Below are positions 1-58,412 of a stretch of 64,000 bases of DNA, piece after piece. A program made the position numbers and the translations under genes. The DNA is taken from the NCBI RefSeq assembly GCF_030684315.1, contig NC_081391.1:20668629-20732628 (forward strand). The letters run 5' to 3'. How positions within the stretch are numbered: position 1 is the first letter of the stretch; every line of letters starts with the position of its first letter. The DNA is from Stegostoma tigrinum (taxonomy: Eukaryota). A model generated the notes under the pieces. The model did no database searches. It was not told the origin of the DNA and saw nothing but the letters and a program-made list of their open reading frames with translations.

Positions 1-200
1 GTGTGGTGCATTTGGAATGAGCTGCGAGAGGAACTGGTGGAGGCTGGTACAGTTAACAACAGGAGATGGTACTTGGCTGTGTCTCTGAAGAGTAAGTGTT
101 CAGAATAATATGGGCAAATACTCATGAATGGGACCAGACTGGTTTTGTATATCTGGTGGACACTGTTGAATGGGACTAAATAGTGAGTTTCCATAATGAC
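1..200 (+). mobile_element. CR1/HER1-type LINE 3' end fragment
   Basis: gtggtgcatttggaatgagctgcgagaggaactggtggaggctggtaca... typical CR1-clade 3' end. Mirror at about 56975-57360. Confidence 0.6.
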
Positions 201-2779
201 TATTCGTCCAACTGAGGAATGGAGTGCGCATCTGAGGGTTTACTCTAACAAGCTGGTGGCTGAGCCCCAACATTACATTTTCTTCATAAAGTTCGAGGAC
301 TAAAGGAGGGGAACAGGAACTTCACAAAAGAAACACTATTTTCCATCTACCTGTCGCCTGCAGGAATGAAAGCCCACCTTAAGGGGCTCTGTTAGACATA
401 TGACAAAACAGGAGAGATCCCAACAGAAAGTTTTAGAGTCCCTTCCAAACAAAAGGATGGAAAGCAACAAAAAAACAATTATCAGTCGACGACTGCCACT
501 GTGTCAGGATCAGGTCTTGAAAAGTAGGAATTTATTTTATTTCAGAGGCTCAGCTTCTACATGAGCAGGAATGGCAGGGAGCTAACCTCCTTCTCACTCT
601 GGGGCCTGCAGAATTTGTAAGAATAACATCCTCTGGCATTTCTGATGATGGTAAGGGTTGTGCTGACATTGAGATGTCCAATTGTGGGAGATATAGCTTG
701 AGTTCATGTCATGCAGCCAATAGCCAGGGCAAGTGTTTGATCGGTGCAAAGGGAGATGTTGAAGAGCAGGTATGAAAAGTGAATTCACTGAAGCCAATCT
801 ATGTGGAAAAGTTTGAACTCAGTGTTATCTGTACATCCATCGTTTCCTCATAAAGGATCCTCTTGAACAAACACAAAGAATTGATGGCCAGCTGGGTAAA
901 AGAAGCAACTGTAAAACAATGACGACAAGCCAGTAGCATCTGCCAGTGCTTGACTGTGGAACAATTATTCCAATCCTTGAGTCAGATGTGGCTCATCTCA
1001 CCCACCAAAGCACAGTCCATTCTTTCAAAATACATCCAGGTTGTGTTGTACGGGAGCAGATTGAGTTCAAATCTGTCAAAGTCCAATCGCCCAGCAAAGC
1101 CCAAATTGTCACAACCCCGTGCGAAGAAGGGCCAAGGAGGAAACAATGCCAAATGAGCTTGGAACAGTGTGTCAGGCAGGATCGATTCCAACAACAGAAG
1201 GATAGCTTCAGTGAGAAACTGCCAATATATTTACATCTTGTAGATACCATTCGCAGAACAAATACACTTTAGCAAAACGAAAATCTTCTTCAACTGATGA
1301 CAGTAGCAAGGAATTATGGTCTTGTTTTCAACCGTATAAAAGATCAAATAAATTTGAGCCAAATCAATTTATTTTGTTGAATCTCCTGATCAGATGATAT
1401 TGAACTTCATTCTGCAAAATAAAACATAAATGAGATGCCGATGTCAGATAGAAATTACTGACAGAGGTGTCTCAATTTCTTAAGCTTTCTCTACCCACAT
1501 GCTCGGAACCTTGCACCCGCTCAGGAGTTCTCTACAAAAACATGAGATAAGGCGATTAACCAGTCAGTGTGTCCTTCAACATTGTATTATGAACTTCCTG
1601 CAGTGTATTTATTTGGATATCAACTTGAGAAGAACGTGGCTATCTGTGGTTGATGTTACACAGACAACCAGGGAGTAAGCCAGGAACACCACCTATTCCC
1701 ACAGAGCCAGGCACCACAGTCATTCATCAAAGTCTCTGGTGACCATTGAATGACCATGCGATGTGCATTAGTTTAGAAAAAACCCTTTGTGACCATGGGT
1801 CATTCCCTGCAGCTCAGGTCCATTCTGACCAAGATATTTGTCAATCACCAGATACATTTTCTGTTCAAATGGATGAAAAGTGTCTGTCCCAAGAGGGCTG
1901 TGTGTGGAAGATGATTGGTGGATTCTGATGTCAATCCCATCTGGCCCGTTAAATCTAAAGGAACACATCTCATCACCTGTTCCAGGACCAAACTGCTCAG
2001 AGTTACAGTATGAAGCAACATGGAAACAGACGGTTTGCTCTAACTCATCCATGCTAACCAGGTACCTCAAACTGAACCAGCGACATTGGCCTGCATTTGG
2101 CTCATATCTTTTGTTGAGGGCCAGACCAAACCTCCTCCAAAGACATTAAGAGTGTCATTTTTTATTTTTAAATGTAAGTGACAGTCATTGTGTTCCAGAT
2201 ACAATTTGATTGATCAAACTATTAACTTCAGACAAAGCATGCTTTATTTTTATAGTACAGTTGAAGTACAGACGAAACAAAATGGAAAGTATTGGCTTAC
2301 CTCTCGAATTGCTGAACAGAATAGTAGACACATTAACTATTATTAATTGACTGTTCCAACACAGTGACATCCTGTAAACACACCCTTGGCAAAGGCAGAT
2401 TCAGTGAAATAGATTGACTCACATGCAATTCTAACAGCCGGAGTCCCAGATTGTAGCTATAACAGAGAGAGGAATAAAAGATCCCGTGGCCAGCTCGAAG
2501 ACCTCAGCCACTGCTGAAATTTAAAACTAAAAATCCTGTTTCAGTGGGTGCTTAACTAAACACTCACCACCTTCACCATCACCAAAACCCCCTCCCACAA
2601 TTCCCCACTTACCCACTCCCCCAAGCAACTCGACTCAGATCGCTTTGAATGTTCGAACAGCAATAAAAAGCCTCAATGCCACACAAGTTACTTTCTTGAC
2701 TTTGAGCGATGCGCTCTCCACCTCTGTCACCAGCTTTCTCCATTTGAAACTAAAGGCAAAATACACCTCTTCAAGCCGT

Positions 2780-2925
2780 TGTTTTGTCACACCTTCTACA
2801 CCCTTCCTATTCATGTTCCTGTCCAAATTGCTTTTAAACGTCTCTACGAGGTCCTCCGACAGTTCATTCCAAACATGCACCACCCTCTGCATGAAAAACC
2901 TGCCCCTCCGGTCCCTTTTCAATCT
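2780..2925 (-). mobile_element. CR1-type LINE fragment upstream of the ferritin promoter
   Basis: Translates KRDRRGRFFMQRVVHVWNELSEDLVETFKSNLDRNMNRK, a CR1 ORF2 C-terminus. Paralogs at about 20300-20440, 31935-32070, 35785-35910, 54248-54390. Confidence 0.65.
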
Positions 2926-3279
2926 TCTAGAACGAAGCTAATTGTAAACACTTGGGGTATCGGTGAAACATTTGAGGCAAAAGAATCATCTTTGTTCAGA
3001 TGGTGGAAATCTGCTTCACTCAAGGTAACATTTTTAATCACTTCATCCCTGTCCCAGAATAGACACTTTTTGAGCAACCTGTTCAGGAGGCAGTGGCACC
3101 TGACACCAGTGTCCTCAGAACCAGAGGCATGGACACTGCCACCCCACATATCTATTTACAAACGACCAGCTCGATTGGCCTGCATTGAAAAAACTATCAC
3201 TGCAAAAGCACTTGCTTCATCAAGAATAATTTGCCAAACCTCTGTCTCTGTCTCAGCATTGTCCCCATAACAACCTTTC

Positions 3280-3400
3280 CCTTTTCATTGGTGCCTAGAT
3301 TGATGGGACATTCCTGATTGGATGTTAGGAATTGTCAGTAATCAGTGGTAATGTCATTCACTGGTTGAGTGCAGGATGTTCCCAGGAGTTATAAATACAA
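3280..3400 (+). promoter_or_regulatory. Ferritin core promoter (inverted CCAAT boxes + TATA)
   Basis: ATTGG twice (about 3287 and 3317) and TATAAATA at 3390-3397, about 70 nt before the ATG. The block is conserved in front of every copy. Confidence 0.7.
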
Positions 3401-3464
3401 AAGTTTGTAGTAGAGCGATTTAGTTTTTGTTTGGTCTGGGTAACAGTGAGCAGGAATAGTGAGG

Positions 3465-6295
3465 ATGTCCTCCCAAGTCTGCCAGAACTACCACAAGGAC
3501 TGTGAGGATGCTGTTAACAAGCAGATCAACCTGGAGCTCTATTCCTCTTATGTCTACCTCTTTATGGTGAGGCTTGAGCGTTCACTCTTTCTCCTTGCTT
3601 GCTTTAGGTCACCGTTTTGCCCCCTCCACTGACCCCACTCCCACCACACAAGAAAAGGCAATTAGGGGTGGGCTATATGTTAGTGCTGTCCATGTCCCAT
3701 GTGTTTCCTTGTTGTCTTTTTCATTGTATCTGGGGTGGATACAGTTTCTTTTGAAGTTGACTTTTGAATGTTTCTTCCCTCTACCAAATGCCTCTCCACT
3801 CAACTGATTAAGGAACTTTTGTTTGTCTTAGTAAGGAACTAGCTACTTTGCATTCTCTTTCTTGGGTTTTATTCTTAAGTGTTTTACATTGGGATAAAAT
3901 CCAAGGATTCTTGGAGGATGATTTTTCATGTTGTAAGAACCTGTTCCATTTCTATGCCACAGCAGTTATGCTGCTTGGCCTGCTGTGTTCATCTAGCTTC
4001 ACACTTTATTATCTTGGCTTCTCCAGCATCTGCAGTTCCCACTATCTCACTTCAAGTGAAGTGGCTGACTCTCAAATGAAGCAGTCACTGAGTCCTCCTG
4101 CCTGTTTCTGAAGGGGGATAACCCTGCTGTGTTTCATTAACACTTCATCCTTCAATGATGATGTCTTACATTATTATCCCAATGGCAGGGGATGTTCTCC
4201 CAACTGATGGAAGGCATTACTTTCACCCTTTTGGTGACAAGGTCTCCTGATTACATCCCTTCAGCTGAGTCCTGAAACAAATCTGGGTTCCCTGTTAAAA
4301 TGGAAGTTGGTCTCTTGACTTTGCTCATGATATTCTGAGGAAGCAATGGCTATTGAACAGTTTTTTTCCAAGTTGCAACTCAGCTCCTACTTGCACACAC
4401 ATGGGTCTCATAGGCAAAGTGGGAACAACCTGTGTTAAAATGGAGGTCACATTTGGAGAAGACCTTGAGTCTAGGGGGCAGTCATCTCCTCGGGCTGGTT
4501 GAGTTGACAGATGTCACATGATCCCCTGTAGATGTGCTCACTGCCCTTACAAAGATTGTGGCTGTTTTGTTTGCATTCTGCACTTGTCCTGTGGCTAACC
4601 AATAACTGCCTCATAGTATCCACTTCTGATAGAAGCCAACAGACACCTAATTGGAGTTGGAGAACCAAATGAAGCCTCTCATCAGTCAAGAACTGTCTCT
4701 TGTATTTCTAAACTATGATCTCTAGTTCTGAACTGTATTCCCAGCCCAATGTGTACCCAGATTGCAAGTCCTGAATGTCTAGACATATTTTCTCTTTTTT
4801 GTCTAGTCTGGGGGGGTGCGGGGGGGGATTAAAAAACTCTCTCTCTTGCTGAAGTTTGACTGGATGCGATCTGGAGTTTGCCGGACTCTATCACTATCAC
4901 TTTCTCCTCTTCTCCTAGTCCTTCCACTTTGACCGGGATGATGTTGCCCTGCATCACTTTGCTGCGTTCTTAGGGGAGCAGTCCCATGAGGAGCGGGAAC
5001 ACGCTGAGAAACTGATGGCTTTCCAGAATAAACGTGGAGGTCGAGTTCTCCTGCAGGACATCAAGGTTGGTGTATCCCCCTACATTACACCTACCTGAAC
5101 TAGACATGGATATGAAGCTTGAAATCTGGGGTAATACCAAAAGGTTACATGGTGCGCACTCTTCTCTAGTTTAGTTGCAGCTCACTGCATTGCACTTCCC
5201 TTCAATTTTCACACGAGTGAAGCATCTGTCTCTTCCCTCTCTCCAGAAGCCAGAGCAGGATGAATGGGGCAGTGGTCTGAAGGCAATGCAGAGAGCTCTG
5301 CAGATGGAGAAGGATGTGAACCAGAGTCTGCTGGATCTACACAAACTCTCCTCTGGCAACACTGACCCTCATGTGAGTTTCTAATGTGGGTTTTTTGAAA
5401 GCCTCAGCTGTAGAATTCCTCTGCATTGAGGATCAGTTTTTAATCTGGTAACAAAGGCATGTTGACTGACAGGACACTGGCTAAAGCATTTTCTTGGGCT
5501 GTTAGGCTCTTGAATTGCACGTGTACAGCAATTCATCCTGCCGCAACACCTCCACTCTGGGAGGGTATTTCCTTCAATTTGAAAGAGGGAAGGCAGAAGT
5601 ACTGAGCTGGCTTGTCAGGCCTTGGGATTTTTCAAGGCCTCATTGGTGTGGCCAAATCTCGGGGTTCTGATTTTACAGCAACATCAGAAGCATTTGTCTC
5701 AAAGAAATGGAAGCTTCACTGCTTCCTGGCTGATTCTCTAGCTTTGCTTTCCCCTCTAAGGAAACTGCATGTGAGAATCTGTCTGTATGTTCCCACTTTA
5801 GGCAAGGGGTATGTGTGGGATTATTGTATTGCAACAGTTACTTGTTAGAAATTAGAGACAATTGTTCATTGTCTTAAATTCTTTTGGCTGTAGTTGACCC
5901 ACAACATAACATTCCCACTGACCAGGTGCATTGTATCCAAAACAGCCTGCATCTGTGTTTAAATGAAGTCCCAGTCGGGGCTAAATAAAATATTGGGGAA
6001 GGGGGTTGTGGTTCTGATCGCAAATCCTCTGCATGAGGACTGCATCAGTATCAAACTCCATTGTTCCAGTTCACAGATTGAAAGGTCAATCTGTTGGGGG
6101 AAACTGGTCTTGTTTAAATTCTCTCCTCTTTCTGGTCAGCTGTGTGACTTCCTGGAGAGGCACTACCTGGATGAGCAAGTGAAGATGATCAAGAAGCTGG
6201 GAGATCACATCACCAACCTGAAGAGACTGGGAGCCCCTGACAATGGCATGGGAGAGTACCTGTTTGACAGGCTCACCTTGGGGGACAGTGACTGA
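3465..6295 (+). CDS. Ferritin heavy-chain-like (H/M-type) gene A, 4 exons, 176 aa, apparently intact
   Basis: Exons 3465-3566 ([34 protein letters not shown]), 4919-5065 ([49 protein letters not shown]), 5247-5372 ([42 protein letters not shown]), 6140-6295 ([51 protein letters not shown]). All introns are GT-AG phase 0 at the vertebrate ferritin positions. AATAAA at 6397-6402. Confidence 0.95.
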
Positions 6296-8292
6296 ACTGC
6301 CAGCAGGGAACAAGCTTGTTGTCATGTGTCTGAATGTGAGACCTGTAAAGACTTCTCCTTTTTGTAGAAGCAGCTCCTTGTCCTGTACCAAGTGTAAATA
6401 AACTGCTCAAGGATTGTGTCTTGACTCCCTTTGGTTAACCCTTGTTGTGAGCTGTGCTACAGCTTGATCCTGTTTTGGTTCCGTTGCTGATGGGAACACT
6501 CTCCCTACTGGGCTGTGGGTTTTGCTGTCTGTCTAGACCAGTCAATTTCCTGGACCAGGTTGACTTTGAGACAGTGAGCTGCTTCCTGGAGCCATTCTAC
6601 GATATTCTGTGAGAACCCACAACATTCTTTGAAGGAATTAGCACTGTCCCAGGAACAGTGAAGGGTCAGGTATGGCTCATGGACCTATCCTTCTTGGCAA
6701 AAGCTCCAACTGAGCAGATGGTTGGAAGAACTCAGGAGAAACAAGGGTTTATTGTGAAAGATGGAATTACAGTAACTTAAGCATAACCAATAAATCCAAG
6801 CACTTCTAGCTGTGAACAGAATAACTTTCAAGGTTGTGCTTGTGGGCATTTGCTTTCAATGCTTGTTTCTACAAGCTGTTCAGTATTACAATCAAAAGGA
6901 GCAGGGCAATCTTGTACCCATGCCTCCCTGACAAGGGGTAGTCACTCTACCACTCCAACACCAGGGGCTTTTCAAGCACATCATGCTGAGTGCATGTCTG
7001 AGGGAGAGCAAATCTGACACTCCCCTGGTTGAAACTTTCCTGGTTATTCAAATTTCAGTTCTAGCTCTCTTCCTGGGGAGCATTGACAACTGAAGGCTGA
7101 GGGTAGCGTTAAACAGGTCCTTTGAAGGTGTGGAGGGAAACATTTGGGATGTTTTCCCTTCATTTGTCAGTGCAGGTTTAGGGTTGCCATGTTCTAACTC
7201 TCAGGCTGCGGTGAGGTCCCTTTGGGAATATGGCATTCAGGTCCGTGATCATCTTGCTGCAGTCACTGTGTTTGTGTTTTTCTGAAACCTCAAGGTTCAG
7301 GAAAATGACGTGTGAGGTCACAGTAAGCCGTGGCGAACCTCCTTGGACTGTCAGAGGCTGAAGGGGGGTACATGGGCAGAGTAAATATCTGAAGACTAAC
7401 ATTCCAGGGTTGGGGCAAGCTGAGGGCATAGTTGACAGGTGAGAGAGAGGAGAGCCTTAAAGAGGATTTTGGGACAACCTTCCACCCAGGGTGGTGAATC
7501 TGGAATGAGCTGCTGTTGGAGGCCGGTCCAGCCCCAAAATAGAGAAGGCACTGGCCTCGCTACAAGAATCGTAGTCCAACAGAGGTATTTTCATTGCATC
7601 AAAACGTTTATTCTAATATATTTGTGGTTGAACCAAACAATGTATGCTCTTCAAAAAGTTCAACAATTCAAGGAGGGGGACATAAACCATTCTAATATAA
7701 ATGGTTTTTTTTTTCCACATGGCTATCCTCTGCAAGCAAAAAACCCATCCTCCAATGCAGTTGGTCAAAGGGCTGGAACAACTAACAAAACAGGAGAGAC
7801 GCCAACAGAAATATCAAAATGTCTCCCTCAAAACCAAAATGAGTGAATGCAAATCCACAACCAAGGATTAACAAACCACTGACGGTCTGTCAGGGTCAGG
7901 TCCTGGAAGGCAATCTTTATTTTAATTTTCAAGATCAGCTGCTAACTGAGCTGGAATAGCAGGAAGCAAAGCTTGTTCTAGCAGTGGGTACTGCAAAAGT
8001 CATGGGAAGAATAACATTCTCTGGCATTTCTCATGATGATGGCGAGGGTTCTGCTGACATTCAGACTTCAGATGCTCCGTTTTGGGAGACACAGCTTGAG
8101 TTCATGTTGTACTGCCAACGGCCGGGGGAAATGCCTATCATTTCACAGGTAGATGTAGAAGCTAAGGTATGAAGTGATTTCACAGAAGCCAATCCATGTG
8201 GAAAGCTTATGAACACCATGTAATCTGTCATCCATCATTTCCTTGTAAAGGACCCTTCTAAGCAAACACAAAGAATGATCCCTTGATGCCCA

Positions 8293-10020
8293 GTGATAGT
8301 GGGAACTGCAGATGCTGCAGAATCCAAGATAATGAAATGTGAGGCTGGATGAACACAGCAGGCCAAGCAGCATCTCAGGAGCACAAAAGCTGACGTTTCG
8401 GGCCTAGACCCTTCATCAGAGAGGGGGATGGGGTGAGGGTTGTGGAATAAATAGGGAGAGAGGGGGGATGTGGACCGAAGATGGAGAGAAAAGAAGATAG
8501 GTGGAGAGGAAAGTATAGGTGGGGAGGTAGGGAGGGGATAGGTCAGTCCAGGGAAGACAGACAGGTCAAGGAGGTGGGATGAGGTTAGTAGGTAGATGGG
8601 GGTGCGGCTTGGGGTGGGAGGAAGGGATGGGTGAGAGGAAGAACAGGTTAGGGAGGCAGAGACAGGTTGGACTGGTTTTGGGATGCAGTGGGTGGAGGGG
8701 AAGAGCTGGGCTGGTTGTGTGATGCAGTGGGGGGAGGGAACGAACTGGGCTGGTTTTGGGATGCAGTGGGGGAAGGGGAGATTTTGAAGCTGGTGAAGTC
8801 CACATTGATACCATGTGGCTGCAGGGTTCCCAAGCGGAATATGAGTTGCTGTTCCTGCAACCTTTGGGTGGCATCATTGTGGCACTGCAAGAGGTCCATG
8901 ATGGACATGTCATCTAAAGAATAGGAGGGGGAGTGGAAATGGTTTGCGACTGGGAGGTGCAGTTGTTTATTGCGAACCGAGCGGAGGTGTTCTGCAAAGC
9001 GGTCCCCAAGCCTCCGCTTGGTTTCCCCAATGTAGAGGATGCCACACCGGGTACAGTGGATGCAGTATACCACATTGGCAGATGTGCAGGTGAACCTCTG
9101 CTTAATGTGAAAAGTCATCTTGCGGCCTGGGATAGGGGTGAGGGAGGAGGTGTGGGGGCAAGTGTAGCATTTCCTGCGGTTGCAGGGGAAGGTGCCGGGT
9201 GTGGTGGGGTTGGAGGGCAGTGTGGAGCGAACAAGGGAGTCACGGAGAGCGTGGTCTCTCCGGAAAGCAGACAGGGTTGGGGATGGAAAATTGTCTTGGG
9301 CGGTGGGGTCGGATTGTAGATGGCGGAAGTGTCGGAGGATGATGCGTTGTATCCGGAGGTTGGTGGGGTGGTATGTGAGAACAAGGGGGATCCTCTTTGG
9401 GCAGTTGTGGCAGGGGCGGGGTGTGAGGGATGTGTTGCAAGAAATATGGGAGACGCAGTCAAGGGCGTTCTCGACCACTGTGGGGGGAAAGTTGCGGTCC
9501 TTGAAGAACTTGGACATCTGGGATGTGCGGGAGTGGAATGCCTCATCGTGGGAGCAGATGCGGCGGAGGCTGAGGAATTGGGAATAGGGGATGGAATTTT
9601 TGCAGGAGGGTAGGTGGGAGGAGGTGTATTCTAGGTAGTTGTGGGAGTCGGTGGGCTTGAAACGGACGTCAGTTACAAGCTGGTTGCCTGAGATGGAGAC
9701 TGAGAGGTCTAGGAAGGTGAGGGATGTGCTGCAGATGGCCCAGGTGAACTGAAGGTTGGGGTGGAAGGTGTAGGTCAAGTGGATGAACTGTTCGAGCTCC
9801 TCTGGGGAGCAAGAGGCGGCGCCGATACAGTCATCAATGTAACGGAGGAAGAGGTGGCGTTTGGGGCCTGCGTAGGTGCGGAAGAGGGACTGTTCCACGT
9901 AACCTACAAAGAGGCAGGCATAGCTAGGCTTCACCAGCTTCAAAATCTCCCCTTCCCCCACTGCATCCCAAAACCAGCCCAGTTCGTCCCCTCCCCCTAC
10001 TGCACCACACAACCAGCCCA
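8293..10020 (-). mobile_element. Penelope-like retroelement (Neptune-type), 5'-truncated, with a short inverted 5' piece
   Basis: ORF 8648..about 9925 with RT motif (SYACLFVGYVEQ...LRYIDD), Cys-rich linker (CNRRKCYTC) and GIY-YIG endonuclease ([30 protein letters not shown]). Pyrimidine-rich tail. 9929-10020 is an inverted copy of the 3' region. Confidence 0.92.
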
Positions 10021-10102
10021 TCACATCACCAACCTGAAGAGACTGGGAGCCCCTGACAATCTCATGGGAGGGCACCTGTTTGACAGGCTCTCACTCAGCT
10101 GA
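10021..10102 (+). pseudogene. Ferritin exon-4 3' fragment fused to a Penelope-like element
   Basis: [26 protein letters not shown] directly abuts the PLE. It and its 3' flank resemble the LTLS-type gene at 62.6 kb. Confidence 0.88.
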
Positions 10103-10885
10103 TGAGCTTTGGAACCATTTTCCAATTTTCTCACTGGATAATGAAATAAATTTCAGTCCAACTGACTTGCTTCTGTATAGCTCATTACATGTAGAATGAT
10201 CGAGATCAAAGATTGCTAGCTGTATGAACTGATCTTGTGAAAAATGTCATGTGTTATTGGTATGCTTCACTGCGTTCCAATGTTATCCAGTGTTAGTGAC
10301 CTCTCCAGGCTACACTTGAGCTGCATGGGGTTTTGGGCTGTGGAGGTGGGGGGATGTGGAGTGACAGTTGCCAATTCAGAGTTGGCTGCTTTCGGGGGGG
10401 CTCCTTTGATTTTAATGTCATGTACTCTCAATCCTGATCCGTATCAACACTGCTTAACATATGGCATTTGGAAACACCATTACTGAGCTACAGCATGCAA
10501 TTAGAAAGGGGATAAAACTTCGACTTGCTTTCAGTAAGACGAAAGCTACTTCAGCACCTGCCATCAAACACACTGAGGATAATGACATTGCAAGGCAAGC
10601 TGCCTTGTAGTTCAACCTGCAGACGTTCTACAGAAAGTCAAGTAGTCTTTACCCTTTTGAGCAGAAAGTAAAGCATTCTTGATACTATTCTCAACTAGTG
10701 TCAGATCAATTTCTTCTGTTTTATTTTCATTTGTCTTCATCAGCAAGAATGTTTCCCATTCCGTGCAGGGATAAAACGATTACGCTGCTGTGTGTAACAG
10801 AATGCAACGTATGCTTCAGTTCTCCAGGTAGGTTCATGGTATTCATTCACCTTGCCTCAAAGAAACGAGAATCACTGTAGAGGAA

Positions 10886-11866
10886 TCCGACCCCACCACC
10901 CAAGACATTTTTCCATCCCCACCCCTGACTGCTTTCCGGAGAGACCACTCTCTCCGTGACTCCCTTGTTCGCTCCACACTGCCCTCCAACCCCACCACAC
11001 CCGGCACCTTCCCCTGCAACCGCAGGAAACGCTAAACTTGCCCCCACACCTCCTCCCTCACCCCTATCCCAGGCCCCAAGATGACATTCCACATTAAGCA
11101 GAGGTTCACCTGCACATCTGCCAATGTGGTATACTGCATCCACTGTACCCGGTGTGGCTCCCTCTACATTGGGGAAACCAAGCGGAGGCTTGGAGACCGC
11201 TTTGCAGAACACCTCCGCTCAGTTCGCAACAAACTACTGCACCTCCCAGTCGCAAACCATTTCCACTCCCCCTCCCATTCTCTAGATGACATGTCCATCA
11301 TGGGCCTCCTGCAGTGCCACAATGATGCCACCCGAAGGTTGCAGGAACAGCAACTCATATTCCGCTTGGGAACCCTGCAGCCATATGGTATCAATGTGGA
11401 CTTCACCAGTTTCAAAATCTCCCCTTCCCCCACTGCATCCCTAAACCAGCCCAGTTCGTTCCCTCCCCCCACTGCATCTCACAACCAGCCCAGCTCTTCC
11501 CCCCCACCCACTGCATCCCAAAACCAGTCCAACCTGTCTGTGCCTCCCTAACCGGTTCTTCCTCTCACCCATCCCTTCCTCCCACCCCAAACCGCACCCC
11601 CACCTACCTACTAACCTCATCCCACCTCCTTGACCTGTCCGTCTTTCCTGGACTGACCTATCCCCTCCCTACCTCCCCACCTATACTCTCTCCACCTATC
11701 TTCTTTACTCTCCATCTTCGGTCGGCCTCCCCCTCTCTCCCTATTTATTCCAGTTCCCTCTCCCCATCCCCCTCTCTGATGAAGGGTCTAGGCCCGAAAC
11801 GTCAGCTTTTGTGCTCCTGAGATGCTGCTTGGCCTGCTGTGTTCATCCAGCCTCACATTTTATTAT
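10886..11866 (+). mobile_element. Penelope-like (Neptune-type) 3' fragment, left arm only
   Basis: GIY-YIG ORF 11081..11551 plus tail. Absent at the mirror position. Confidence 0.9.
11776..11803 (+). ncRNA. Minimal hammerhead-ribozyme-like core in PLE tail
   Basis: CTGATGA-a-GGGT-ctag-GCCC-GAAAC-GTC. Related copies at 8419-8392 (-), 48765-48792 (+) and about 59885-59912 (+). Stem I pairing is weak in the monomer. Confidence 0.55.
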
Positions 11867-12409
11867 CCAGATCCAAAATGTTAGCTTTCCTGCTCCTTTG
11901 GTGCTGCTTGGCCTGCTGCGATCATCCAGCTTTACAACTCGTTACCTCAGATTCTCTTGCATCTGCAACTCCCATGATCTCAAATGGCTCTAATCTACTT
12001 TGAATAGCAAAGCTATGGCAATCTTTCAAAGGAACCTGTACTTGGGCCTGGGGTCACGGTCAGATTTAGAAATAGCCTCGTTGAGGGAATAGAGAGATGT
12101 GCATTCTCGGTTTCCTCACTTCCCACACAAAGAATATCAATGTATGAAAACCTGAATTGAACATCGACTCTATTGATTACTTCAAACTGAGATTGGTGAC
12201 TATCTGTTAAGAACAGTGTGTAAAGACAATATGGTAGGTTGCACAGGTTTTAAAGACAAGCCAAGTAAGATCCAGTTGAATGGTGCAATATGCTTGAGGA
12301 GTTGAAAACCCTCCTCCTGTTTGCATGGTCCAAATAATCTGAAACTCCTCGTATTTATTGGAATACAAGCTCGGCTCTTTCAGTTACATACCATTCCCTG
12401 ACTGAAATT

Positions 12410-12520
12410 AGTGCCTAGATTGATGGGAGATTTCTGATTGGCCATCAGTGATTGTCAATTGTCATTGGTAACATCATTTGCTGGTTGAGAGCAGGATATC
12501 CCAGGAGCATAAATACATGA
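12410..12520 (+). promoter_or_regulatory. Ferritin core promoter, gene B
   Basis: Same block (ctgattgg...gcaggat.tcccaggag) with CATAAATA at 12508-12515. Confidence 0.65.
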
Positions 12521-12582
12521 GCTTGTGGGAGAAAGGCCTAGATGTAGAGTTCTCCCAGTGGTTGTGAGTGGGAATAGTGAAG

Positions 12583-16134
<3,552 letters not shown>

Positions 16135-17169
16135 ACTGACTGCAGGGAGTGAGCTTGTTGTGAGTGTCTGAATAGGAGACCTGGTAGAGACTCCTTTTAG
16201 TAGGAGCAGCTCATTGCCCTGTACCAAGTGTAAATAAACTGCTCAATATTGGATTGTGTCTTGCCTCCCTTTCTTGGTTAATCCTTGCTGTGAGCTGTGC
16301 TATAGCTTGATCCTGTCTTAGTTCTGTTCCTGCTCATGGGAACACTTTGCACTGGGCTGTGGTTTCACTGTCTGGCCCAGATAATTGCCTGAACCAAGCT
16401 GCCTTTGAGATGGTGAGTTGTTGCCTTGAGCCACTCTACTAGATTGTGTGTGGGTAGAGCCACACTCCCCTTGAAGGAATTAGCACTGACTCAGGAACAG
16501 TGAAGGGTGAGGAATTGCTCAGGGACCTAGCCTTCTTGGTAGAAGGCTAGGAGCCATTGGGGAAATGCAAGGGATATTGTGAATGCTGGAATTAGTTAAT
16601 GAAGCATAACTAACAAATCCAGGCATTTCTGGGTTTGAATAGAACAACTTTTGATGTTGTGCTTGTGGAAATTTGCTTTCCACATTTAACTTCTCTACAA
16701 GCTGTTCAGCATTTAACTCAAAGGGAGCAGGTGCAGCTTGAACCCATGCCTCCCTGACAAGGGCTAGTCACACTACCACTGCACCACCAGGGGCTTTTCA
16801 AGCACATCATACTGAGTGACTCTCCCTAGTATGTACAATCTGACACTCCCCCTGATTGGGACTTGTCTGGTTTGTGACATTTCAGTTCTGATTAGGTTCC
16901 TGGGGAGCATTGACAAATGAAGGCTGAGGGTGCAGGTGAACAGGTTCTTTGAAGGCGTGGATGGAAACATTTGGGGTGTTTTCCCTTCATTTCTTAGTGT
17001 ATTCAGTACAGGATTGGGGACACCATGTTCCAACTGTGGAGGGCAGTGGTGAGGTCCCTTCAGGAATATTGCATTCAGTGATCATCTCCCTGCTGTCAAT
17101 GTTTGCCTTTCTTGCTTTTCCTGAAAGCTCAAGGACCAGGAAAAAGTTCTGCAAGAAGGCAGAGTAAGC

Positions 17170-17540
17170 TATGGCTAACCTCCTTGGACTGCCAGAGGCT
17201 GAGGTGGGACTTTAGATGATAAAACAACGGGGGGCATGGACAGAGTAAATAGCTGACGATGAACATCCCAGGGTTTGGGCAAGCAGAGGGTGTAGTTGAT
17301 TAGTTGAACGGTGGGGGGAGAGAGATTTAAACAGGACTGTGGGGCAACTTTCCCACCCAGGGTGGTGAGTCTGGAATGAGCTGCTGCTGGAGGTTGGTCC
17401 AGTGACAAAATAGAGATGGACCCCACCTCAGTAAATGATTAGGAATGGTTCAGAGGGATATAGCCAGATGGGGCCAGACCAGTTTTGGATAAATGGTGGG
17501 CATAGATGGACTTCAGGTATTAGTCATTCTCCATGCTGAA
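17170..17540 (+). mobile_element. Degenerate CR1-type LINE 3' fragment
   Basis: ggggcatggacagagtaaatag...caactttcccacccagggtggtgagtctggaatgagctgc. Paralogs at about 7330-7520, 28850-29230, 38710-39080, 49650-49850. Confidence 0.55.
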
Positions 17541-17720
17541 TCTTAGTCTTAGTCCAACTGAGGTTTTATCAGTGCTTTACAAGGTTTATTCTAATGCATT
17601 TGTGGTTGAACCAAACGATGTATGTTCTTTGTAAAGTTCAACGATCCGAGGAGTGGGGCATAAACTATTCCAACACACGTGCCCTTTTCCATGTCGTTAT
17701 CAGCTGCAAGCAAAACAACC

Positions 17721-17874
17721 CCTCCTACAATGCAGTGATAATGGGAACTGCAGATCCTCTCTGATGAAGGGTCTGGGCCTGAAATGCCAGCTTTTGTGTT
17801 CCCGAGATGCTGCTGGGCCTGCTGTGTTCATCCAGCCTCACATTTTATAGTCTTGGAGCCTCCTACAATGCAGT
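17721..17874 (+). mobile_element. Mini Penelope tail insertion (122 bp) with 16-bp TSD
   Basis: cctcctacaatgcagt at 17721-17736 and 17859-17874 flanks a PLE tail. The paralogous site near 7750 is empty. Mirror copy at about 38376-38529. Confidence 0.8.
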
Positions 17875-20920: not shown

Positions 20921-20968
20921 TTTGTGGTAGAGTGGTTCAGTTTTTATTTGGTCTGGGTAATAGTGAAG

Positions 20969-30266: not shown

Positions 30267-31252
<986 letters not shown>

Positions 31253-40121: not shown

Positions 40122-43635
<3,514 letters not shown>

Positions 43636-43810: not shown

Positions 43811-46124
43811 TTTCAGTCAGGGAATGGTATGTAACTGAAAGAGCCGAGCTTGTATTCCAATAAATACGAGGAGTTTCAGATTATTTGGACCATGCAAACA
43901 GGAGGAGGGTTTTCAACTCCTCAAGCATATTGCACCATTCAACTGGATCTTGGTTAGCTTGTCTTTAAAACCTGTGCAACCTACCATACTTCCATATTGT
44001 CTTTTCACATTGTTCTTAACAGATAGTCACCAATCTCAGTTTGAAGTAATCAATAGAGTCGATGTTCAATTCAGGTTTTCATACATTGATATTCTTTGTG
44101 TGGGAAGTGAGGAAACCGAGAATGCACATCTCTCTATTCCCTCAACGAGGCTATTTCTAAATCTGACCGTGACCCCAGGCCCAAGTACAGGTTCCTTTGA
44201 AAGATTGCCATAGCTTTGCTATTCAAAGTAGATTAGAGCCATTTGAGATCATGGGAGCTGCAGGTGCAAGAGAATCTGAGGTAACGAGTTGTAGAGCTGG
44301 ATGATCGCAGCAGGCCAAGCAGCACCAAAGGAGCAGGAAAGCTAACATTTTGGGTCCGGAACCTTCTTTAGAAATTCCTGAAGAAGAGACCAGACCTGAA
44401 GCCTTAGCTTTCATGTTCCACTGATGCTGCTTGGCCTGCTGTGTTCGTCGAGCTCCACACGGTGTTATCTCAGATCGCCATTAGCTCTCCTCCATCTCCA
44501 AACGATTTCTGAAGGTTTTCTCCACATGCCTCACTTTCTTACAGTTATGTCATGGACTCTTGTCTGCAATGGAAATTAATTGCTGTGGCTTTCCTCAAGT
44601 TGAAACTGATAGAATTCTCGAAATCAGATTTTCCCAATACATCTCAGTAAATTCAACCCTGCCGACACGATTTAGTACAATTCCTCGTGTATTCGCCCAC
44701 CTCTTGACGAATTGACACATCACTTGTCAGGTTCAGAAGAGGTCAGTGATGCAGATAATAATGACAACAGTTGACGACAAACATCACTCAGTCTAACGTG
44801 CTGTTCCTTCTGCAAATGTTGACTTTAAAATGAGAGGTATTCGTGAGACAAAATTTAACATTTGATACTTGGAGAGCCTTGGGATGTAACTTGAGCCTTT
44901 CTGCTTTTATTCATCCAACACATTGTATGGTCTTTGGACAGTGAGGGTGCAGGCAATAGTTCCCAACATGTGGCACCTTTCATGACAGGCATCTTAAAGT
45001 GATCAATTCTCGGTCGCATAAACGGGAGAAAACAAAACCTCATTTCACGATCTTGTGAGCAGTAGGATTTGGAACATAACCAGCCAGCTGTTTGAGCACT
45101 GAAACAAGACCATGTCTGATGTGGCCACAACTATAATACCATTGGTAATGAACCAGGAGAGGGCTTGCCAGAGCAGAGCTGAAATAGAGGGAATCATGAA
45201 TTCTGCAATGACCATCAGGGAGTTGGTGCTGTAACAGATGTGCTCCTGCTCTCAGCTCTCTCGGTGACCATTTAAGCCTCAAAACAACTTTAACAATGGC
45301 CTGTCATGACACACTTCCTGTTGTTAGTTACTAACAATCCTCATTAACAGCTATTCAGCCTCCTAGCCAGATCATTATCAACTCCTCTGTCTGTTCATCT
45401 GCTCTTCTGCGTCCTTGGGCTCTATCCTTTCTCCTATCCTTTGATCCCTACCCCATCCCCAGCCCTACCTTCTGCATATGAACTGACATTTTCCAAGCTC
45501 CCGTATATTCTGAGGAAGGGTCATTGGACCTGAAACGTTAGCTCTGATGCCTTCTCCACGGATGCTGACAGACCTGCTGCACTTTCCCAGAAACTTCTGT
45601 TTCCGTTGTTGATGGTGGGGAAGTGTTTGGAATGCACTGAATGTGGGGAATGATTGTGAAGCGTTAAGATCCGGAGGCTCTATTTATTTCATGAGCAAGA
45701 GCACGTCAGCCCACCAGGTGCATGGAGAACTGTAAGAAACACTTCCAATAATTTGGTGGAATTGAAGAGATATTGTTCCATTTCTGGTTCCAGTAAACAA
45801 TCAGCAGAACCCCACCAACTTGGGTCAAAATTTCACCTCTGCTCATGAAGAATCTCTCTCAGTAATGTTCGGAATCACTTTGACAGAGACTTTCAATTCC
45901 TCAACCTACCGGTGCAAAGAAAGGTTTCATTTTAAATGGGTGACCTGCTACTCTAAACTCTCCCAAGAGTGGCATCCTCCCCACGATCTGTCAACAGCTG
46001 CCAGTCAACTCCCTGTTGCTCAACAAGGATGAGCAGATGCAAGTTAGTCCCACACCTCATCAACATGAAGCCCAACCCCTCCCAAATTCATCTGGAAAAC
46101 CCTTATTTGAAGAACTTATGCAGT

Positions 46125-46305
46125 AGTGGCTTGGGTATGCTCAGGGTTCTCCTGCTCCCTCTTCGTCCAATGATGTGCACGCTAGCTGGATTGGCCATGA
46201 GAAATTGCCCAGTGTTCAAATCTTTGACAATTAGGTGAGATATAGGGGACAGGGTCAGCTCGGACTTGTTGGGCCAAGGGGCCTCTTCCTGCACTGTAGG
46301 GATTC
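46125..46305 (+). mobile_element. HE1-like SINE 3' body (elasmobranch)
   Basis: gatgtgcac...ggattggccatg..aaattgccc...ggacttgttgggccaagggg...cactgtagggattc resembles the shark HE1 SINE as I recall it. Paralog at about 61575-61750. Confidence 0.6.
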
Positions 46306-47163: not shown

Positions 47164-48891
47164 TGGGCTGGTTGTGTGGTGCAGTGGGGGGAGGGGACGA
47201 ACTGGGCTGGTTTTGGGATGCAGTGGGGGAAGGGGAGATTTTGAAGCTGGTGAGGTCTAGCTATGCCTGCCTCTTTGTAGGTTACGTGGAACAGTCCCTC
47301 TTCCGCACCTACGCAGGCCCCAAACGCCACCTCTTCCTCCGTTACATTGATGACTGTATCGGCGCCGCCTCTTGCTCCCCAGAGGAGCTCGAACAGTTCA
47401 TCCACTTGACCTACACCTTCCACCCCAACCTTCAGTTCACCTGGGCCATCTGCCGCACATCCCTCACCTTCCTAGACCTCTCAGTCTCCATCTCAGGCAA
47501 CCAGCTTGTAACTGACGTCCGTTTCAAGCCCACCGACTCCCACAACTACCTAGAATACACCTCCTCCCACCTACCCTCCTGCAAAAATTCCATCCCCTAT
47601 TCCCAATTCCTCAGCCTCCGCCGCATCTGCTCCCACGATGAGGCATTCCACTCCCGCACATCCCAGATGTCCAAGTTCTTCAAGGACCGCAACTTTCCCC
47701 CCACAGTGGTCGAGAACGCCCTTGACTGCGTCTCCCATATTTCTTGCAACACATCCCTCACACCCCGCCCCTGCCACAACTGCCCAAAGAGGATCCCCCT
47801 TGTTCTCACATACCACCCCACCAACCTCCGGATACAACGCATCATCCTCCGACACTTCCGCCATCTACAATCCGACCCCACCGCCCAAGACAATTTTCCA
47901 TCCCCAACCCTGTCTGCTTTCCGGAGAGACCACGCTCTCCGTGACTCCCTTGTTCGCTCCACACTGCCCTCCAACCCCACCACACCCGGCACCTTCCCCT
48001 GCAACCGCAGGAAATGCTACACTTGCCCCCACACCTCCTCCCTCACCCCTATCCCAGGCCGCAAGATGACTTTTCACATTAAGCAGAGGTTCACCTGCAC
48101 ATCTGCCAATGTGGTATACTGCATCCACTGTACCCGGTGTGGCATCCTCTACATTGGGGAAACCAAGCGGAGGCTTGGGGACCGCTTTGCAGAACACCTC
48201 CGCTCGGTTCGCAATAAACAACTGCACCTCCCAGTCGCAAACCATTTCCACTCCCCCTCCTATTCTTTAGATGACATGTCCATCATGGACCTCTTGCAGT
48301 GCCACAATGATGCCACCCAAAGGTTGCAGGAACAGCAACTCATATTCCGCTTGGGAACCCTGCAGCCACATGGTATCAATGTGGACTTCACCAGCTTCAA
48401 AATCTCCCCTTCCCCCACTGCATCCCAAAACCAGCCCAGTTCGTCCCCTCCCCCCACTGCATCACACAACCAGCCCAGCTCTTCCCCTCCACCCACTGCA
48501 TCCCAAAACCAGTCCAACCTGTCTCTGCCTCCCTAACCTGTTCTTCCTCTCACCCATCCCTTCCTCCCACCCCAAGCCGCACCCCCATCTACCTACTAAC
48601 CTCATCCCACCTCCTTGACCTGTCTGTCTTCCCTGGACTGACCTATCCCCTCCCTACCTCCCCACCTATACTTTCCTCTCCACCTATCTTCTTTTCTCTC
48701 CATCTTCGGTCCACATCCCCCCTCTCTCCCTATTTATTCCACAACCCTCACCCCATCCCCCTCTCTGATGAAGGGTCTAGGTCCGAAACGTCAGCTTTTG
48801 TGCTCCTGAGATGCTGCTTGGCCTGCTGTGTTCATCCAGCCTCACATTTCATTATCTTGGATTCTGCAGCATCTGCAGTTCCCACTATCAC
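47164..48891 (+). mobile_element. Penelope-like retroelement (mirror of 8293-10020)
   Basis: ORF 47160..48536 with RT C-terminal half and GIY-YIG domain; nearly identical to the left-arm copy. Confidence 0.92.
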
Positions 48892-50873: not shown

Positions 50874-53707
50874 TCAGTCACTGTCCCCCAAGGTGAGCCT
50901 GTCAAACAGGTACTCTCCCATGCCATTGTCAGGGGCTCCCAGTCTCTTCAGGTTGGTGATGTGATCTCCCAGCTTCTTGATCATCTTCACTTGCTCATCC
51001 AGGTAGTGCCTCTCCAGGAAGTCACACAGCTGACCAGAAAGAGGAGAGAATTTAAACAAGACCAGTTTCCCCCAACAGATTGACCTTTCAATCTGTGAAC
51101 TGGAACAATGGAGTTTGATACTGATGCAGTCCTCATGCAGAGGATTTGCGATCAGAACCACAAACCCCTTCCCCAATATTTTATTTAGCCCCGACCGGGA
51201 CTTCATTTAAAAACAGATGCAGGCTGTTTTGGATACAATGCACCTGGTCAGTGGGAATGTTATGTTGTGGGTCAACTACAGCCAAAAGAATTTAAGACAA
51301 TGAACAATTGTCTCTAATTTCTGACAAGTAACTGTTGCAATACAATAATCCCACACATACCCCTTGCCTGAAGTGGGAACATACAGACAGATTCTCACAT
51401 GCAGTTTCCTTAGAGGGAAAGCAAAGCTAGAGAATCAGCCAGGAAGCAGTGAAGCTTCCATTTCTTTGAGACAAATGCTTCTGATGTTGCTGTAAAATCA
51501 GAACCCCGAGATTTGGCCACACCAATGAGGCCTTGAAAAATCCCAAGGCCTGACAAGCCAGCTCAGTACTTCTGCCTTCCCTCTTTCAAATTGAAGGAAA
51601 TACCCTCCCAGAGTGGAGGTGTTGCGGCAGGATGAATTGCTGTACACGTGCAATTCAAGAGCCTAACAGCCCAAGAAAATGCTTTAGCCAGTGTCCTGTC
51701 AGTCAACATGCCTTAGTTACCAGATTAAAAACTGATCCTCAATGCAGTGGAATTCTACAGCTGAGGCTTTCAAAAAACCCACATTAGAAACTCACATGAG
51801 GGTCAGTGTGGCCAGAGGAGAGTTTGTGCAGATCCAGCAGACTCTGGTTCACATCCTTCTCCATGTGCAGAGCTCTCTGCATTGCCTCCAGACCATTGCC
51901 CCACTCATCCTGCTCTGGCTTCTGGAGGGAGAGAAGAGACAGATGCTTCACTCATGTGAAAAGTGAAGGGAAGTGCAATGCAGTGAGCTGCAACTAAACT
52001 AGAGAAGAGTGCGCACCATGTAACCTTTTGGTATTACCCCAGATTTCAAGCTTCATATCCATGTCTAGTTCAGGTAGGTGTAATGTAGGGGGATACACCA
52101 ACCTTGATGTCCTGCAGGAGAACTCGACCTCCACGTTTATTCTGGAAAGCCATCAGTTTCTCAGCGTGTTCCCGCTCCTCATGGGACTGCTCCTTGAAGA
52201 ACGCAGCAAAGTGATGCAGGGCAACATCATCCCGGTCAAAGTGGAAGGACTGTGGGAGAAGAGGAGAAAGTGATAGTGATAGAGTCCGGCAAGCTCCAGA
52301 TCGCATCCAGTCAAACTTCAGCAAGAGAGAGAGTTTTTTAATCCACCCCCCCCCCCCCCCCAGACTAGACAAAAAAAAAGAAAATATGCAAGTCCTGAAT
52401 GTCTAGACAATCTGGGTACACATTGGGCTGGGAATACAGTTCAGAACTAGAGATCATAGTTTAGAAATACAAGAGACAGTTCTTGACTGATGAGAGGCTT
52501 CATTTGGTTCTCCAACTCCAATTAGGAGTCTGTTGGCTTCTATCAGAAGTGGATACTATGAGGCAGTTATTGGTTAGCCACAGGACAAGTGCAGAATGCA
52601 AACAAAACAGCCACAATCTTTGTAAGGGCAGTGAGCACATCTACAGGGGATCATGTGACATCTGTCAACTCAACCAGCCAGAGGAGATGACTGCCCCCTA
52701 GACTCAAGGTCTTCTCCAAATGTGACCTCCATTTTAACACAGGTTGTTCCCACTTTGCCTATGAGACCCATGTGTGTGCAAGTAGGAGCTGAGTTGCAAC
52801 TTGGAAAAAAACTGTTCAATAGCCATTGCTTCCTCAGAATATCATGAGTAAAGTCAAGAGACCAACTTCCATTTTAACAGGGAACCCAGATTTATTTCAG
52901 GACTCAGCTGAAGGGATGTAATCAGGAGACCTTGTCACCAAAAGGGTGAAAGTAATGCCTTCCATCAGTTGGGAGAACATCCCCTGCCATTGGGATAATA
53001 ATGTAAGACATCATCATTGAAGGACCAAGTGTTAATGAAACACAGCAGGGTTATCCCCCTTCAGAAACAGGCAGGAGGACTCAGTGACTGCTTCATTTGA
53101 GAGTCAGCCACTTCACTTGAACTGAGATAGTGGGAACTGCAGATGCTGGAGAAGCCAAGATAATAAAGTGTGAAGCTAGATGAACGCAGCAGGCCAAGCA
53201 GCATAACTGCTGTGGAATAGAAATGGAACAGGTTCTTACAACATGAAAAATCATCCTCCAAGAATCCTTGGATTTTATCCCAATGTAAAACAATTAAGAA
53301 TAAAACCCAAGAAAGAGAATGCAAAGTAGCTAGTTCCTTACCAAGACAAACAAAAATTCCTTAATCAGTTAAGTGGAGAGGCATTTGGTAGAGGGAAGAA
53401 ACATTCAAAAGTCAACTTCAAAAGAAACTGTATCCACCCCAGATACAATGAAAAAGACAACAAGGAAACACATGGGACATGGACAGCACTAACATATGGC
53501 CCACCCCTAATTGCCTTTTCTTGTGTGGTGGGAGTGGGGTCAGTGGAGCGGGCAAAACGGTGACCTAAAGCAAGCAAGGAGAAAGAGTGAACGCTCAAGC
53601 CTCACCATAAAGAGGTAGACATAAGAGGAATAGAGCTCCAGGTTGATCTGCTTGTTAACAGCATCCTCACAGTCCTTGTGGTAGTTCTGGCAGACTTGGG
53701 AGGCCAT
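50874..53707 (-). CDS. Ferritin heavy-chain-like gene A' (mirror of A), 4 exons, 176 aa, apparently intact
   Basis: Exons 53707-53606, 52249-52103, 51921-51796, 51029-50874; GT-AG; ferroxidase motif QSHEEREH intact; ends LTLGDSD*. AATAAA at 50772-50767. Confidence 0.95.
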
Positions 53708-56800: not shown

Positions 56801-58412
56801 CTTTCATTCCTGCAGGCGACAGGTAGATGGAAAATAGTGTTTCTTTTGTGAAGTTCCTGTTCCCCTCCTTTAGTCCTCAAACTTTATGAAGAAAATGTAA
56901 TGTTGGGGCTCAGCCACCAGCTTGTTAGAGTAAACCCTCAGATGCGCACTCCATTCCTCAGTTGGACGAATAGTCATTATGGAAACTCACTATTTAGTCC
57001 CATTCAACAGTGTCCACCAGATATACAAAACCAGTCTGGTCCCATTCATGAGTATTTGCCCATATTATTCTGAACACTTACTCTTCAGAGACACAGCCAA
57101 GTACCATCTCCTGTTGTTAACTGTACCAGCCTCCACCAGTTCCTCTCGCAGCTCATTCCAAATGCACCACACCCTACAGGGCAGCTGCCCCAGGAACCCT
57201 TTTTAATCTTGCCTCTCACTTTTCATCTATGCTCTCTTCAAGCCTGGGAAGAAAGGCCTTGACTATTTATTCCATCCACGTCCCTCGATATTACAAATCG
57301 AATGTCTCCTCTTGGCTTCTGGCACTCAAATGAGGCTAGAGCCAGTTTACTCAGCCTCTTTGCTGATGTTTTTCCTGAATCTTTAGCTTTTAGGATATCT
57401 TTAGGAGGAAACCCAGCAATAAATGCAGTATTCCTAAAGTAACCTCACCACTGCCCGATTCAGCTGTAGGGTGACATTCTAAATACTGTACCCCATGCCC
57501 TGACAATGCAGGGAAGCATCCCAAATATTTTCTTTCCCACCTTCAAGGAACTTAATACCTGCACCCTAGGCCTTTATTTGAAAGTGCTCCCCAGGAGTCT
57601 AACAAGGACTGATAAACTTGACAAGTCAAGAAATTTACATCTCACTCTGATTTGAGAGTTGGACTCACCCCATATGCACACTTAGCATGTATTATTTGCT
57701 TAACTCTAGCTGGTGCAATGGCAGCATCCCTACCCCTCGTCTTGGAGGGGTGGTTTCAAGTCCCAACCACTCCATTAGAGTGTAATACTAAACAGCTTGA
57801 TGAAGCCAACTAAAGTAGCATTGAAAGCAAAATTCCATAGGCACAACCTGAAGTTTATTCTTTCCATACCCACAAGTGTCTTGAATTGTGGGCTGTGCTT
57901 AACTTACTGGAATACCAGTTTTCCCAATAACAACCCCCCCACTCGCCCCACCAACGTTTCCCTGATGGCTTAGAACCTTCTGCTCAGTTGGCCCTTTTGC
58001 CAAGAAGGGTAGGTCCATGAGCCATTCCTCACACTTCACTGTTCCTGAATCAGTTCTAATTCCTTCCTACAGAGGATATGGTGGGTCAACCACTACAGGA
58101 TGCAGGAAGGCTCAGGGCAGCAGCTCCCCCTGTCCAAGGTAACTCGCTGCAGACTATTGTCTGGTCCACATAGTGAAACCCACAGCCCATTGGGAAACGA
58201 GTTCCCATCAGCAGCAGCAGAACCAAACAGGAACTAAGTACAGAACAATTCACAGCAAAGATTAAAATGAGAAAGGGAGGCAAGACATGGTCCACTATTG
58301 AGCAATTTATTTACACTTTGTACAGAGCAATGAGCTGCTTCTACAAAAAGGATAAGTCTCTACAGGTCTCCCATTCAGACACATGACAACAAGCTCACTC
58401 CCTGCAGGCAGT

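Follow-up and report, generated by a model that had tools for sequence, protein, structure and literature searches.

A 64,000 nt stretch of the genome of the shark Stegostoma tigrinum (contig NC_081391.1 of assembly GCF_030684315.1, positions 20,668,629 to 20,732,628), referred to here as the window, contains nine ferritin copies or fragments, four of them four-exon genes and five broken or partial, with the four-exon genes carried on the mirrored arms of a large inverted repeat. The arms and the differences between them were defined by self-BLAST of the whole window, which has no N in its 64 kb, and by global alignment of the arms. The outer block of the left arm (1-10877, forward strand) mirrors 57172-46305 on the reverse strand with 98.58% identity over 10,892 columns (E=0; 123 substitutions and 12 indels), and the inner block (11866-21050) mirrors 44360-35175 with 96.72% identity over 9,241 columns (E=0; 222 substitutions and 20 indels), the two arms flanking a 14.1 kb spacer (21051-35174). 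The arms are interrupted between the blocks: the left carries a 1 kb Penelope-type retroelement insertion, T2 (10884-11867, forward strand), in place of 1.9 kb that the right arm retains (44361-46304), which represents the ancestral state at this point and has a 79% homologue at 59979-62139. Base 1 of the window already belongs to the left arm, which runs off the window, so that the window edge also sets the outer end of the right arm and 57 kb is a minimum size: the arms are at least 21 kb and the whole structure at least 57 kb long. A first-pass annotation of the sequence had described an inverted repeat of about 57 kb, with arms of 21-22 kb, a spacer of about 14 kb and gene pairs pointing inward, and self-BLAST and the strands of the genes bear this out, with the size as a minimum. 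The structure is very probably real and apparently undescribed at this locus.

Genes A (3465-6295; exons 3465-3566, 4919-5065, 5247-5372 and 6140-6295) and B (12583-16134; exons 12583-12684, 15150-15296, 15467-15592 and 15979-16134) are on the forward strand of the left arm, and their four-exon counterparts B' (40117-43635) and A' (50874-53707) are on the reverse strand of the right arm. All introns are GT-AG, and A, A' and B each encode an intact product of 176 aa, while an extra G within a G run near the end of B', which may be a homopolymer error, gives a 175 aa product with the last one or two residues altered. The three ferritin exons scanned all match Pfam PF00210, and the best PDB matches of exon 2 are described as 'ferritin, middle subunit' and then 'heavy chain' (M and H chains, including frog M, salmon and human H). 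A ferritin domain, a four-exon gene and a product of about 176 aa are thus all present, as in vertebrate H/M-type ferritins. The ferroxidase ligands, in frog M numbering E23, Y30, E57/E58, H61, E103 and Q137, are retained at the corresponding positions in the translations of all four genes, and the stretch of ligands in exon 2 agrees with that of frog M ferritin.

While the genes resemble vertebrate M and H ferritins in their exon 2 match and ferroxidase ligand positions, they differ in that no iron-responsive element (IRE) was found: Rfam gave no match in the window, and no CAGUGN loop on a stem was seen in any of the six ferritin 5' regions inspected. An IRE in the 5' untranslated region (UTR) is typical of somatic H, L and M ferritin genes. 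The 5' UTRs here are short, follow a TATA box (3380-3465, 12500-12583 and their mirrors) and, unlike those of typical somatic genes, lack the element. Judged from the sequence, this suggests iron-independent translation, which would fit bulk storage of iron in the oocyte.

The coding regions of A and A' differ at 10 of 528 nt, altering seven amino acids, and those of B and B' at 13 of 516 nt, and the coding exons are no better matched between the arms than their flanks. Nine of the ten A/A' coding differences fall on gene A when judged against the other copies, which suggests that A has been under relaxed selection or contains a foreign tract. With its nine copies or fragments, and repeating units 70-92% alike in self-BLAST, the window is a slice of a ferritin cluster; no non-ferritin flanking gene lies within it.

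Patchy divergence between the arms

Over 19,989 aligned bases the arms differ by 345 substitutions and 32 indels, or by 311 substitutions (a mean divergence of 1.56%) when three complex events are set aside, and divergence ranges from near 0 to about 10% in kilobase-scale patches. The arms are nearly identical at 1-3.0, 8.1-9.9, 12.27-12.93, 16.26-17.7 and 19.19-19.89 kb. These five tracts, each 0.7-3 kb long and together 7.6 kb, carry 0.24 events per 100 bp compared with 1.52 elsewhere. The first-pass annotation had judged 1-3.4, 8.3-10.9 and 16.3-21 kb to be near-identical by eye, which holds for parts of these intervals but not for 9.9-10.9, 17.7-19.2 and 19.9-21.05 kb, where there are 1.3-1.6 events per 100 bp; the lower identity that it saw in intron 1 and the 3' UTR of gene B is evident in the arm alignment. 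Three template-switch events in 20 kb set the arms apart: microinversions of 23 bp (4764-4787) and 20 bp (13858-13879), which make up two of the densest clusters of differences, and a 28 bp indel (35910-35946) that is a templated local inversion.

The differences are overdispersed in raw form, and remain so when neighbours within 3 bp or within 10 bp of each other are merged (P between 1e-46 and 0.002). Among the models fitted to raw substitutions in 99 bins of 200 bp, a gamma-Poisson distribution (shape 0.89, mean 1.56%) fits best, with a Bayesian information criterion of 460 compared with 635 for uniform divergence, 494 for two classes and 470 for three; four classes are also beaten. By these tests the identity is patchy, as first annotated, and the uniform divergence of a single recent duplication is rejected. 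A strict two-class model was also set aside, as a product of merging nearby differences. A shape of 0.89 is near exponential; a near-exponential spread of divergence is expected at a balance of conversion and mutation, and allelic coalescence times are likewise exponentially distributed.

A fairly recent single inverted duplication with little or no arm-to-arm conversion could nevertheless yield patchiness if tracts were imported from other cluster copies and complex mutations clustered. Tracts shared with non-mirror copies and microinversions are both seen directly, and merging at 10 bp leaves two levels of divergence, 0.24% and 1.52%, each homogeneous, although the raw substitutions favour a continuous distribution over two classes. 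Retroelements in the arms, which we take to be of the Penelope family, fit this explanation poorly. The element T1 (8327-10020, reverse strand) is present in both arms (mirror at approximately 47164-48857), where its copies share 16 private changes yet show just 2 differences from one another across 988 bp (P=5e-5 at 1.5%), while the neighbouring unique flank differs by 1.4%. T2, which the right arm lacks, has accumulated 21 private changes over 983 columns, among them a stop, whereas 7.5 would be expected for an insertion at the split implied by 1.5% divergence (P=4e-5); it seems to be as old as T1. The left arm ends at a third and older Penelope-like element (21051-23401), with putative reverse transcriptase and GIY-YIG sequences, two inverted halves and a 12 bp target-site duplication, and since its halves differ at 82 of 1,056 bases (7.8%) it predates the identity of the arms. 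The near-identity of T1, the similar age of the left-only T2 and the older element at the arm end together suggest that the arms have been apart for longer than their identity implies; if T2 gives a minimum age, the arms would be expected to be about 3-4% apart rather than 1.56%. Arms older than their identity favour arm-to-arm conversion.

The clearest donors of converted tracts are not the mirror copies. In the 1 kb block upstream of the genes, present in five copies, 8 of the 19 sites at which pseudogenes G and D (the copies at the inner arm ends) differ by substitution have both alleles represented in A, A' or C, a partial copy in the spacer (P 1e-5 to 6e-8); four consecutive sites (20346-20376) are common to D and C, and A' and D, the two copies on the right arm, have one indel and one substitution in common. 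Some tracts can therefore be matched to a particular donor copy, and conversion from non-mirror copies, which lowers the identity of the arms, is evident from these comparisons. The first-pass proposal of a ferritin amplicon maintained by conversion survives in so far as homogenization of the arms after their split is the best reading of T1, T2 and the gamma fit, but the clearest tracts come from non-mirror copies and reduce arm identity. The polarized differences have no GC bias (71 weak-to-strong, 70 strong-to-weak) and no donor-arm asymmetry (86 and 92), and thus give no signal of GC-biased gene conversion.

The 1.3 kb upstream block itself (2190-3546) recurs at 19718, 32474, 36534 and 54983 and is 94-95% alike among non-mirror copies, the introns of which are merely 70-85% alike; on this evidence promoter regions appear to have been exchanged more often than gene bodies.

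The inner end of the arms is no chance breakpoint: it lies in register within exon 1 of G and D, two older and oppositely oriented copies. In this exon, the 82 bases ahead of the inserted element hold a single G/D difference and the 20 bases after it hold five (Fisher P=0.001), and over the exon tail and the start of intron 1 beyond the element they differ at 23 of 142 positions (16%), compared with 21-24% against A and A'. Because the boundary is in register in exon 1 at the insertion and divergence jumps past the element, copying would have been anchored in homology and halted at the element.

Sequencing depth and the origin of the structure

Contigs from four of ten public runs (X1, X2, X3 and X5) were placed on 15400-35399, with copy number taken from single-contig depths among the records listed (8 per run of more than 267,000), for which contig limits are approximate and ratios were calculated by hand; allele counts come from 40 of 91 difference rows listed. 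None of the ten runs is listed as RNA; X6-X8 are bisulfite raw reads, X9 and X10 have a share of 0.00, and the evidence from X5 is confined to the 26 of 30 bins that it covers. Bin-mean depths were rejected as a measure of copy number since repeats inflate their values, and joints from 17848 to 19311 or 21049 were rejected as short repeat matches. Seven contigs per run lie in the spacer, at one-copy depth (means of 9.3, 21.3 and 9.7 in X1, X2 and X3, respectively), while the collapsed arm contig at 16287-17781 has depths of 19.4, 37.1 and 15.5, giving arm-to-spacer ratios of 2.09, 1.74 and 1.59, where 1.89 would be expected. Among the 12 arm difference rows listed, nine carry right-arm alleles, and both arm types are present in samples S1 and S2.

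Depth also bears on where the differences came from. Seven of nine multi-copy segments agree with the 31-mer multiplicity of the window itself, so that a hidden, near-identical donor is unnecessary for the majority of divergent patches. At 17885-17991 and 18988-19158, both in tracts of 1.3-1.5% divergence, depths of 1.4-1.8 (1.53 and 1.73 expected) fit two copies only, which speaks against a hidden donor there and against importation of these differences after a recent duplication. The remaining two segments exceed expectation, at 15676 (about 3 against 1.96 expected) and in intron 3 of copy F (about 1.65 against 1.16, with all nine listed alleles F-type), as does a single value for X1, at 18616. 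The extra depth at 15676, by suggesting a third B-like copy, favours a recent duplication with imported tracts. Given the evidence of T1, T2, the two-copy segments and the raw substitutions, we regard that explanation as unlikely.

We favour instead, with a probability of roughly 60%, an inverted duplication within the cluster that is older than the mean identity of its arms and has evolved by mutation together with conversion, both arm-to-arm and from non-mirror copies, with retroelements bounding the tracts. A block of two ferritin genes would have been inversely duplicated within the cluster, and the conserved exon 1 would have served as anchor for the homology-directed copying by which the arms arose or were lengthened. 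Kilobase-scale conversion between the arms since then would have reset approximately a third of their length to about 0.2%, while short conversion from other cluster copies, which is shown statistically, has moved them apart, and retroelement insertions break genes and would block conversion tracts. The patchy identity is then likely to represent a balance between mutation and recurrent conversion, arm-to-arm and from other copies. The mirror arrangement itself would be a by-product of cluster turnover and not a selected device for preserving genes.

Several observations weigh against this explanation. The five low-divergence tracts were chosen after segmentation, and merging differences within 25 bp of one another removes the significant overdispersion (P=0.13-0.16), so that clustered complex mutation accounts for some of the patchiness, as a recent duplication would have it. 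Both alleles are found in a paralogue at 42 of the 235 arm differences for which one could be aligned, which is within chance for flanks that are 20% divergent, and significance in this respect is confined to the upstream block and a handful of short tracts. The T2 age is open to question in that its non-synonymous changes (7, with 3.6 expected; P=0.08) show no significant excess and element subfamily structure could swell the private counts. The excess depths at 15676, 18616 and intron 3 of F indicate close copies outside the window, and no contig spans the structure; the 2:1 depth, which is uncalibrated for ploidy, fits two haplotypes equally well.

This last point raises the question of whether two structural haplotypes were joined head to head in the assembly, through the element at 24.2-26.6 kb, such that the arms are allelic and the halves of the spacer hemizygous. 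Such a join also predicts a 2:1 depth, the orientation switches on a repeat with no contig spanning it, an exponential spread is equally expected of allelic coalescence, and the 0.24% divergence of the low tracts matches the allelic diversity of the epaulette shark (pi=0.002; PMC10587355). However, the mean divergence of 1.56% is about eight times that diversity; some patches approach 10%, the arms are separated by two large heterologies, and the window is without a gap. The element in question (24210-26571, forward strand) is degenerate, Penelope-type and truncated at its 3' end, and lies where the ferritin units turn from the forward to the reverse strand; it is old and matches other copies at about 90% across 0.9 kb, and would hardly lend itself to bridging a false overlap. 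The right junction of the element is formed by approximately 4 bp of microhomology with host DNA, no target-site duplication being seen at this element. In addition, X5, filed under another study, contains a contig matching intron 3 of the left-arm gene B (1 difference in 247 bp) together with four pieces of the right half of the spacer (no differences over about 1,370 bp), and would have to share both haplotypes, although it may be from the same animal. We consider a mis-join quite improbable.

A more far-reaching version of the duplication that we favour, which we regard as doubtful, is that of an ancient palindrome. The innermost part of its original mirror would survive in decayed form as G and D, now 16% apart, while arm-to-arm conversion would have kept the outer 21 kb or more close to 98% over tens of millions of generations. 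If so, retroelements fix the boundary, the ferritin mega-clusters of sharks would be built of conversion-maintained, inverted, IRE-less amplicons of ovary type, and these would provide a female-germline counterpart to the testis amplicons of mammals.

Comparison with palindromes and shark ferritin clusters

Primate X and Y palindromes and the window share arms of more than 8 kb (10.9 and 9.2 kb blocks here) around a spacer, genes within the arms (A, A' and B intact, and B' with its 175 aa product) and likely arm-to-arm conversion (PMC8327919, PMC3403216). Palindromes have been defined, however, by arms of more than 8 kb with greater than 99% identity (PMC8327919), and Y palindrome arms are 99.9% identical (PMC3403216), whereas the blocks here are 98.6% and 96.7% identical and differ by 1.56% in substitutions even without the complex events. 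The window differs further from the primate palindromes (>99-99.99%) in the large heterologies within its arms, in its setting in a multi-copy cluster and in conversion from non-mirror copies. It resembles a slow, leaky form of the primate palindrome but falls outside the published definition.

The parallel with mammalian sex-chromosome palindromes drawn in the first-pass annotation is accordingly not supported, with arms at 96.7-98.6% and exons no better matched than flanks. That the structure is a sex-linked, gene-preserving palindrome of the mammalian X/Y kind, held by selection and frequent arm-to-arm conversion, is in our view highly improbable. The long arms and spacer, the signs of conversion and the four essentially intact arm genes beside broken spacer copies are what such a palindrome would show, but its arms should exceed 99% (PMC8327919) or approach 99.9% (PMC3403216), A and A' are seven amino acids apart, and the arms also hold the pseudogene exon 1 of G and D. 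A term search of the main text of a paper on shark sex chromosomes returned no ferritin, palindrome or amplicon (PMC12318234), and the ferritin clusters that have been reported in sharks are expressed in the ovary (10.1101/2024.09.09.611499).

Those clusters, which the first-pass annotation did not bring in, are the closest known counterparts of the window. The Greenland shark has 155 FTL and 179 FTH1 copies, about 80% of them in three clusters that are ovary-specific in expression and syntenic with the great white shark (10.1101/2024.09.09.611499). The window shares with these elasmobranch mega-clusters many closely spaced, near-full-length copies, and the X5 run, not on record as RNA, contains exon-joined ferritin contigs, of which there are none in X1-X3. 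It is likely to lie in one such cluster, of a carpet shark; about half of the copies in the window are broken. The available text of the cluster paper gives counts, synteny and ovary expression and is silent on inverted duplication and conversion (10.1101/2024.09.09.611499), neither of which we found described for shark ferritin clusters in the open-access literature; a term search of 10.1101/2025.02.19.638963 found no mention of ferritin. By analogy with the Greenland shark, the role of the locus would be that of the cluster as a whole, the supply of extra IRE-less, ferroxidase-type ferritin, probably for iron loading of the oocyte.

Conversion among ferritin copies has a precedent in the mammalian X-linked FTHL17-type genes, for which gene conversion has been inferred and which serve as substrates for homologous rearrangement (PMC5363321, in dog; PMC2724270). 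In both cases ferritin-family copies are homogenized by inferred conversion, but the FTHL17-type loci are few and retrocopy-derived, with homologies of about 550 bp over 6 Mb, whereas the window has intron-bearing genes on 20 kb arms (PMC5363321, PMC2724270).

No new mechanism is involved: this is an inverted segmental duplication with familiar conversion inside a known shark gene expansion. What it provides is a view of the likely route by which the large ferritin clusters of sharks turn over, through inversion-duplication of blocks anchored in conserved exons and conversion between copies, with retroelements that likely both kill genes and stop conversion tracts. If the epaulette shark mutation rate of 7e-10 per generation (PMC10587355) applies, a divergence of 1.56% corresponds to about 11 million generations. 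At so low a rate, the structure should persist in assemblies of sister species, where the classic ortholog-versus-mirror test of conversion would then be easy to apply outside mammals.

Broken copies and retroelements

Pseudogene G (20969-24210, forward strand) consists of an exon 1 split by the arm-end retroelement, followed by the 5' part of intron 1. Pseudogene D (34079-35256, reverse strand) has an intact exon 1 (35155-35256) astride the right arm end, a stop in exon 2 and a broken exon 3, and has lost exon 4. Copy C (30267-31252, reverse strand) retains exons 2-4 only, with a stop three codons early; a deletion at approximately 31470 has removed its TATA box and exon 1 along with most of intron 1. 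Copy E (58413-58568, reverse strand) is a lone exon 4, cut off by a Penelope-type element (58675-59977).

The T1 element is fused to an exon 4 fragment of a ferritin copy at 10020-10090. Penelope-type elements (8327-10020, 21051-23401, 24210-26571 and 58675-59977) lie within or beside ferritin exons, or where sequence has been deleted (G exon 1, E exon 4 and the exon 4 fragment at 10020), and may drive gene loss in the cluster. The retroelement open reading frame (ORF) at 8651-9946 has its top homologues in Stegostoma (87%) and Rhincodon (84%), followed by Hypanus, Chiloscyllium and Mobula, with 59 proteins at E<=1e-100 among 3,594 candidates; these homologues bear PF00078, PF01541 and PF26215. 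They point to a carpet shark, and so support the first-pass inference of a cartilaginous fish. GIY-YIG was found in three of the five element ORFs scanned, in each case below the Pfam cut-off. Contig depths give a rough estimate of 1e5 genomic copies for the family.

The intact exon 1 of D (35256-35155) and exons 2-4 of C (31252-30267, reverse strand) are in frame with one another for 173 codons. X5 contains joints between D exon 1 and C exon 2, with sides of 24-27 bases that could come from any copy in the cluster, and from these sequences a chimeric D-C read-through gene is possible.

Depth at 15600-15700 is about three times that of a single copy, where 1.96 is expected, which may reflect a third B-like copy beyond the window. 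Copy F (62646-63616, reverse strand) has exons 2-4 in the window and its exon 1 beyond it, and is possibly mirrored to the left of the window; the depth of the F-type intron 3 contigs hints that the mirror reaches at least 6 kb beyond the window on that side.

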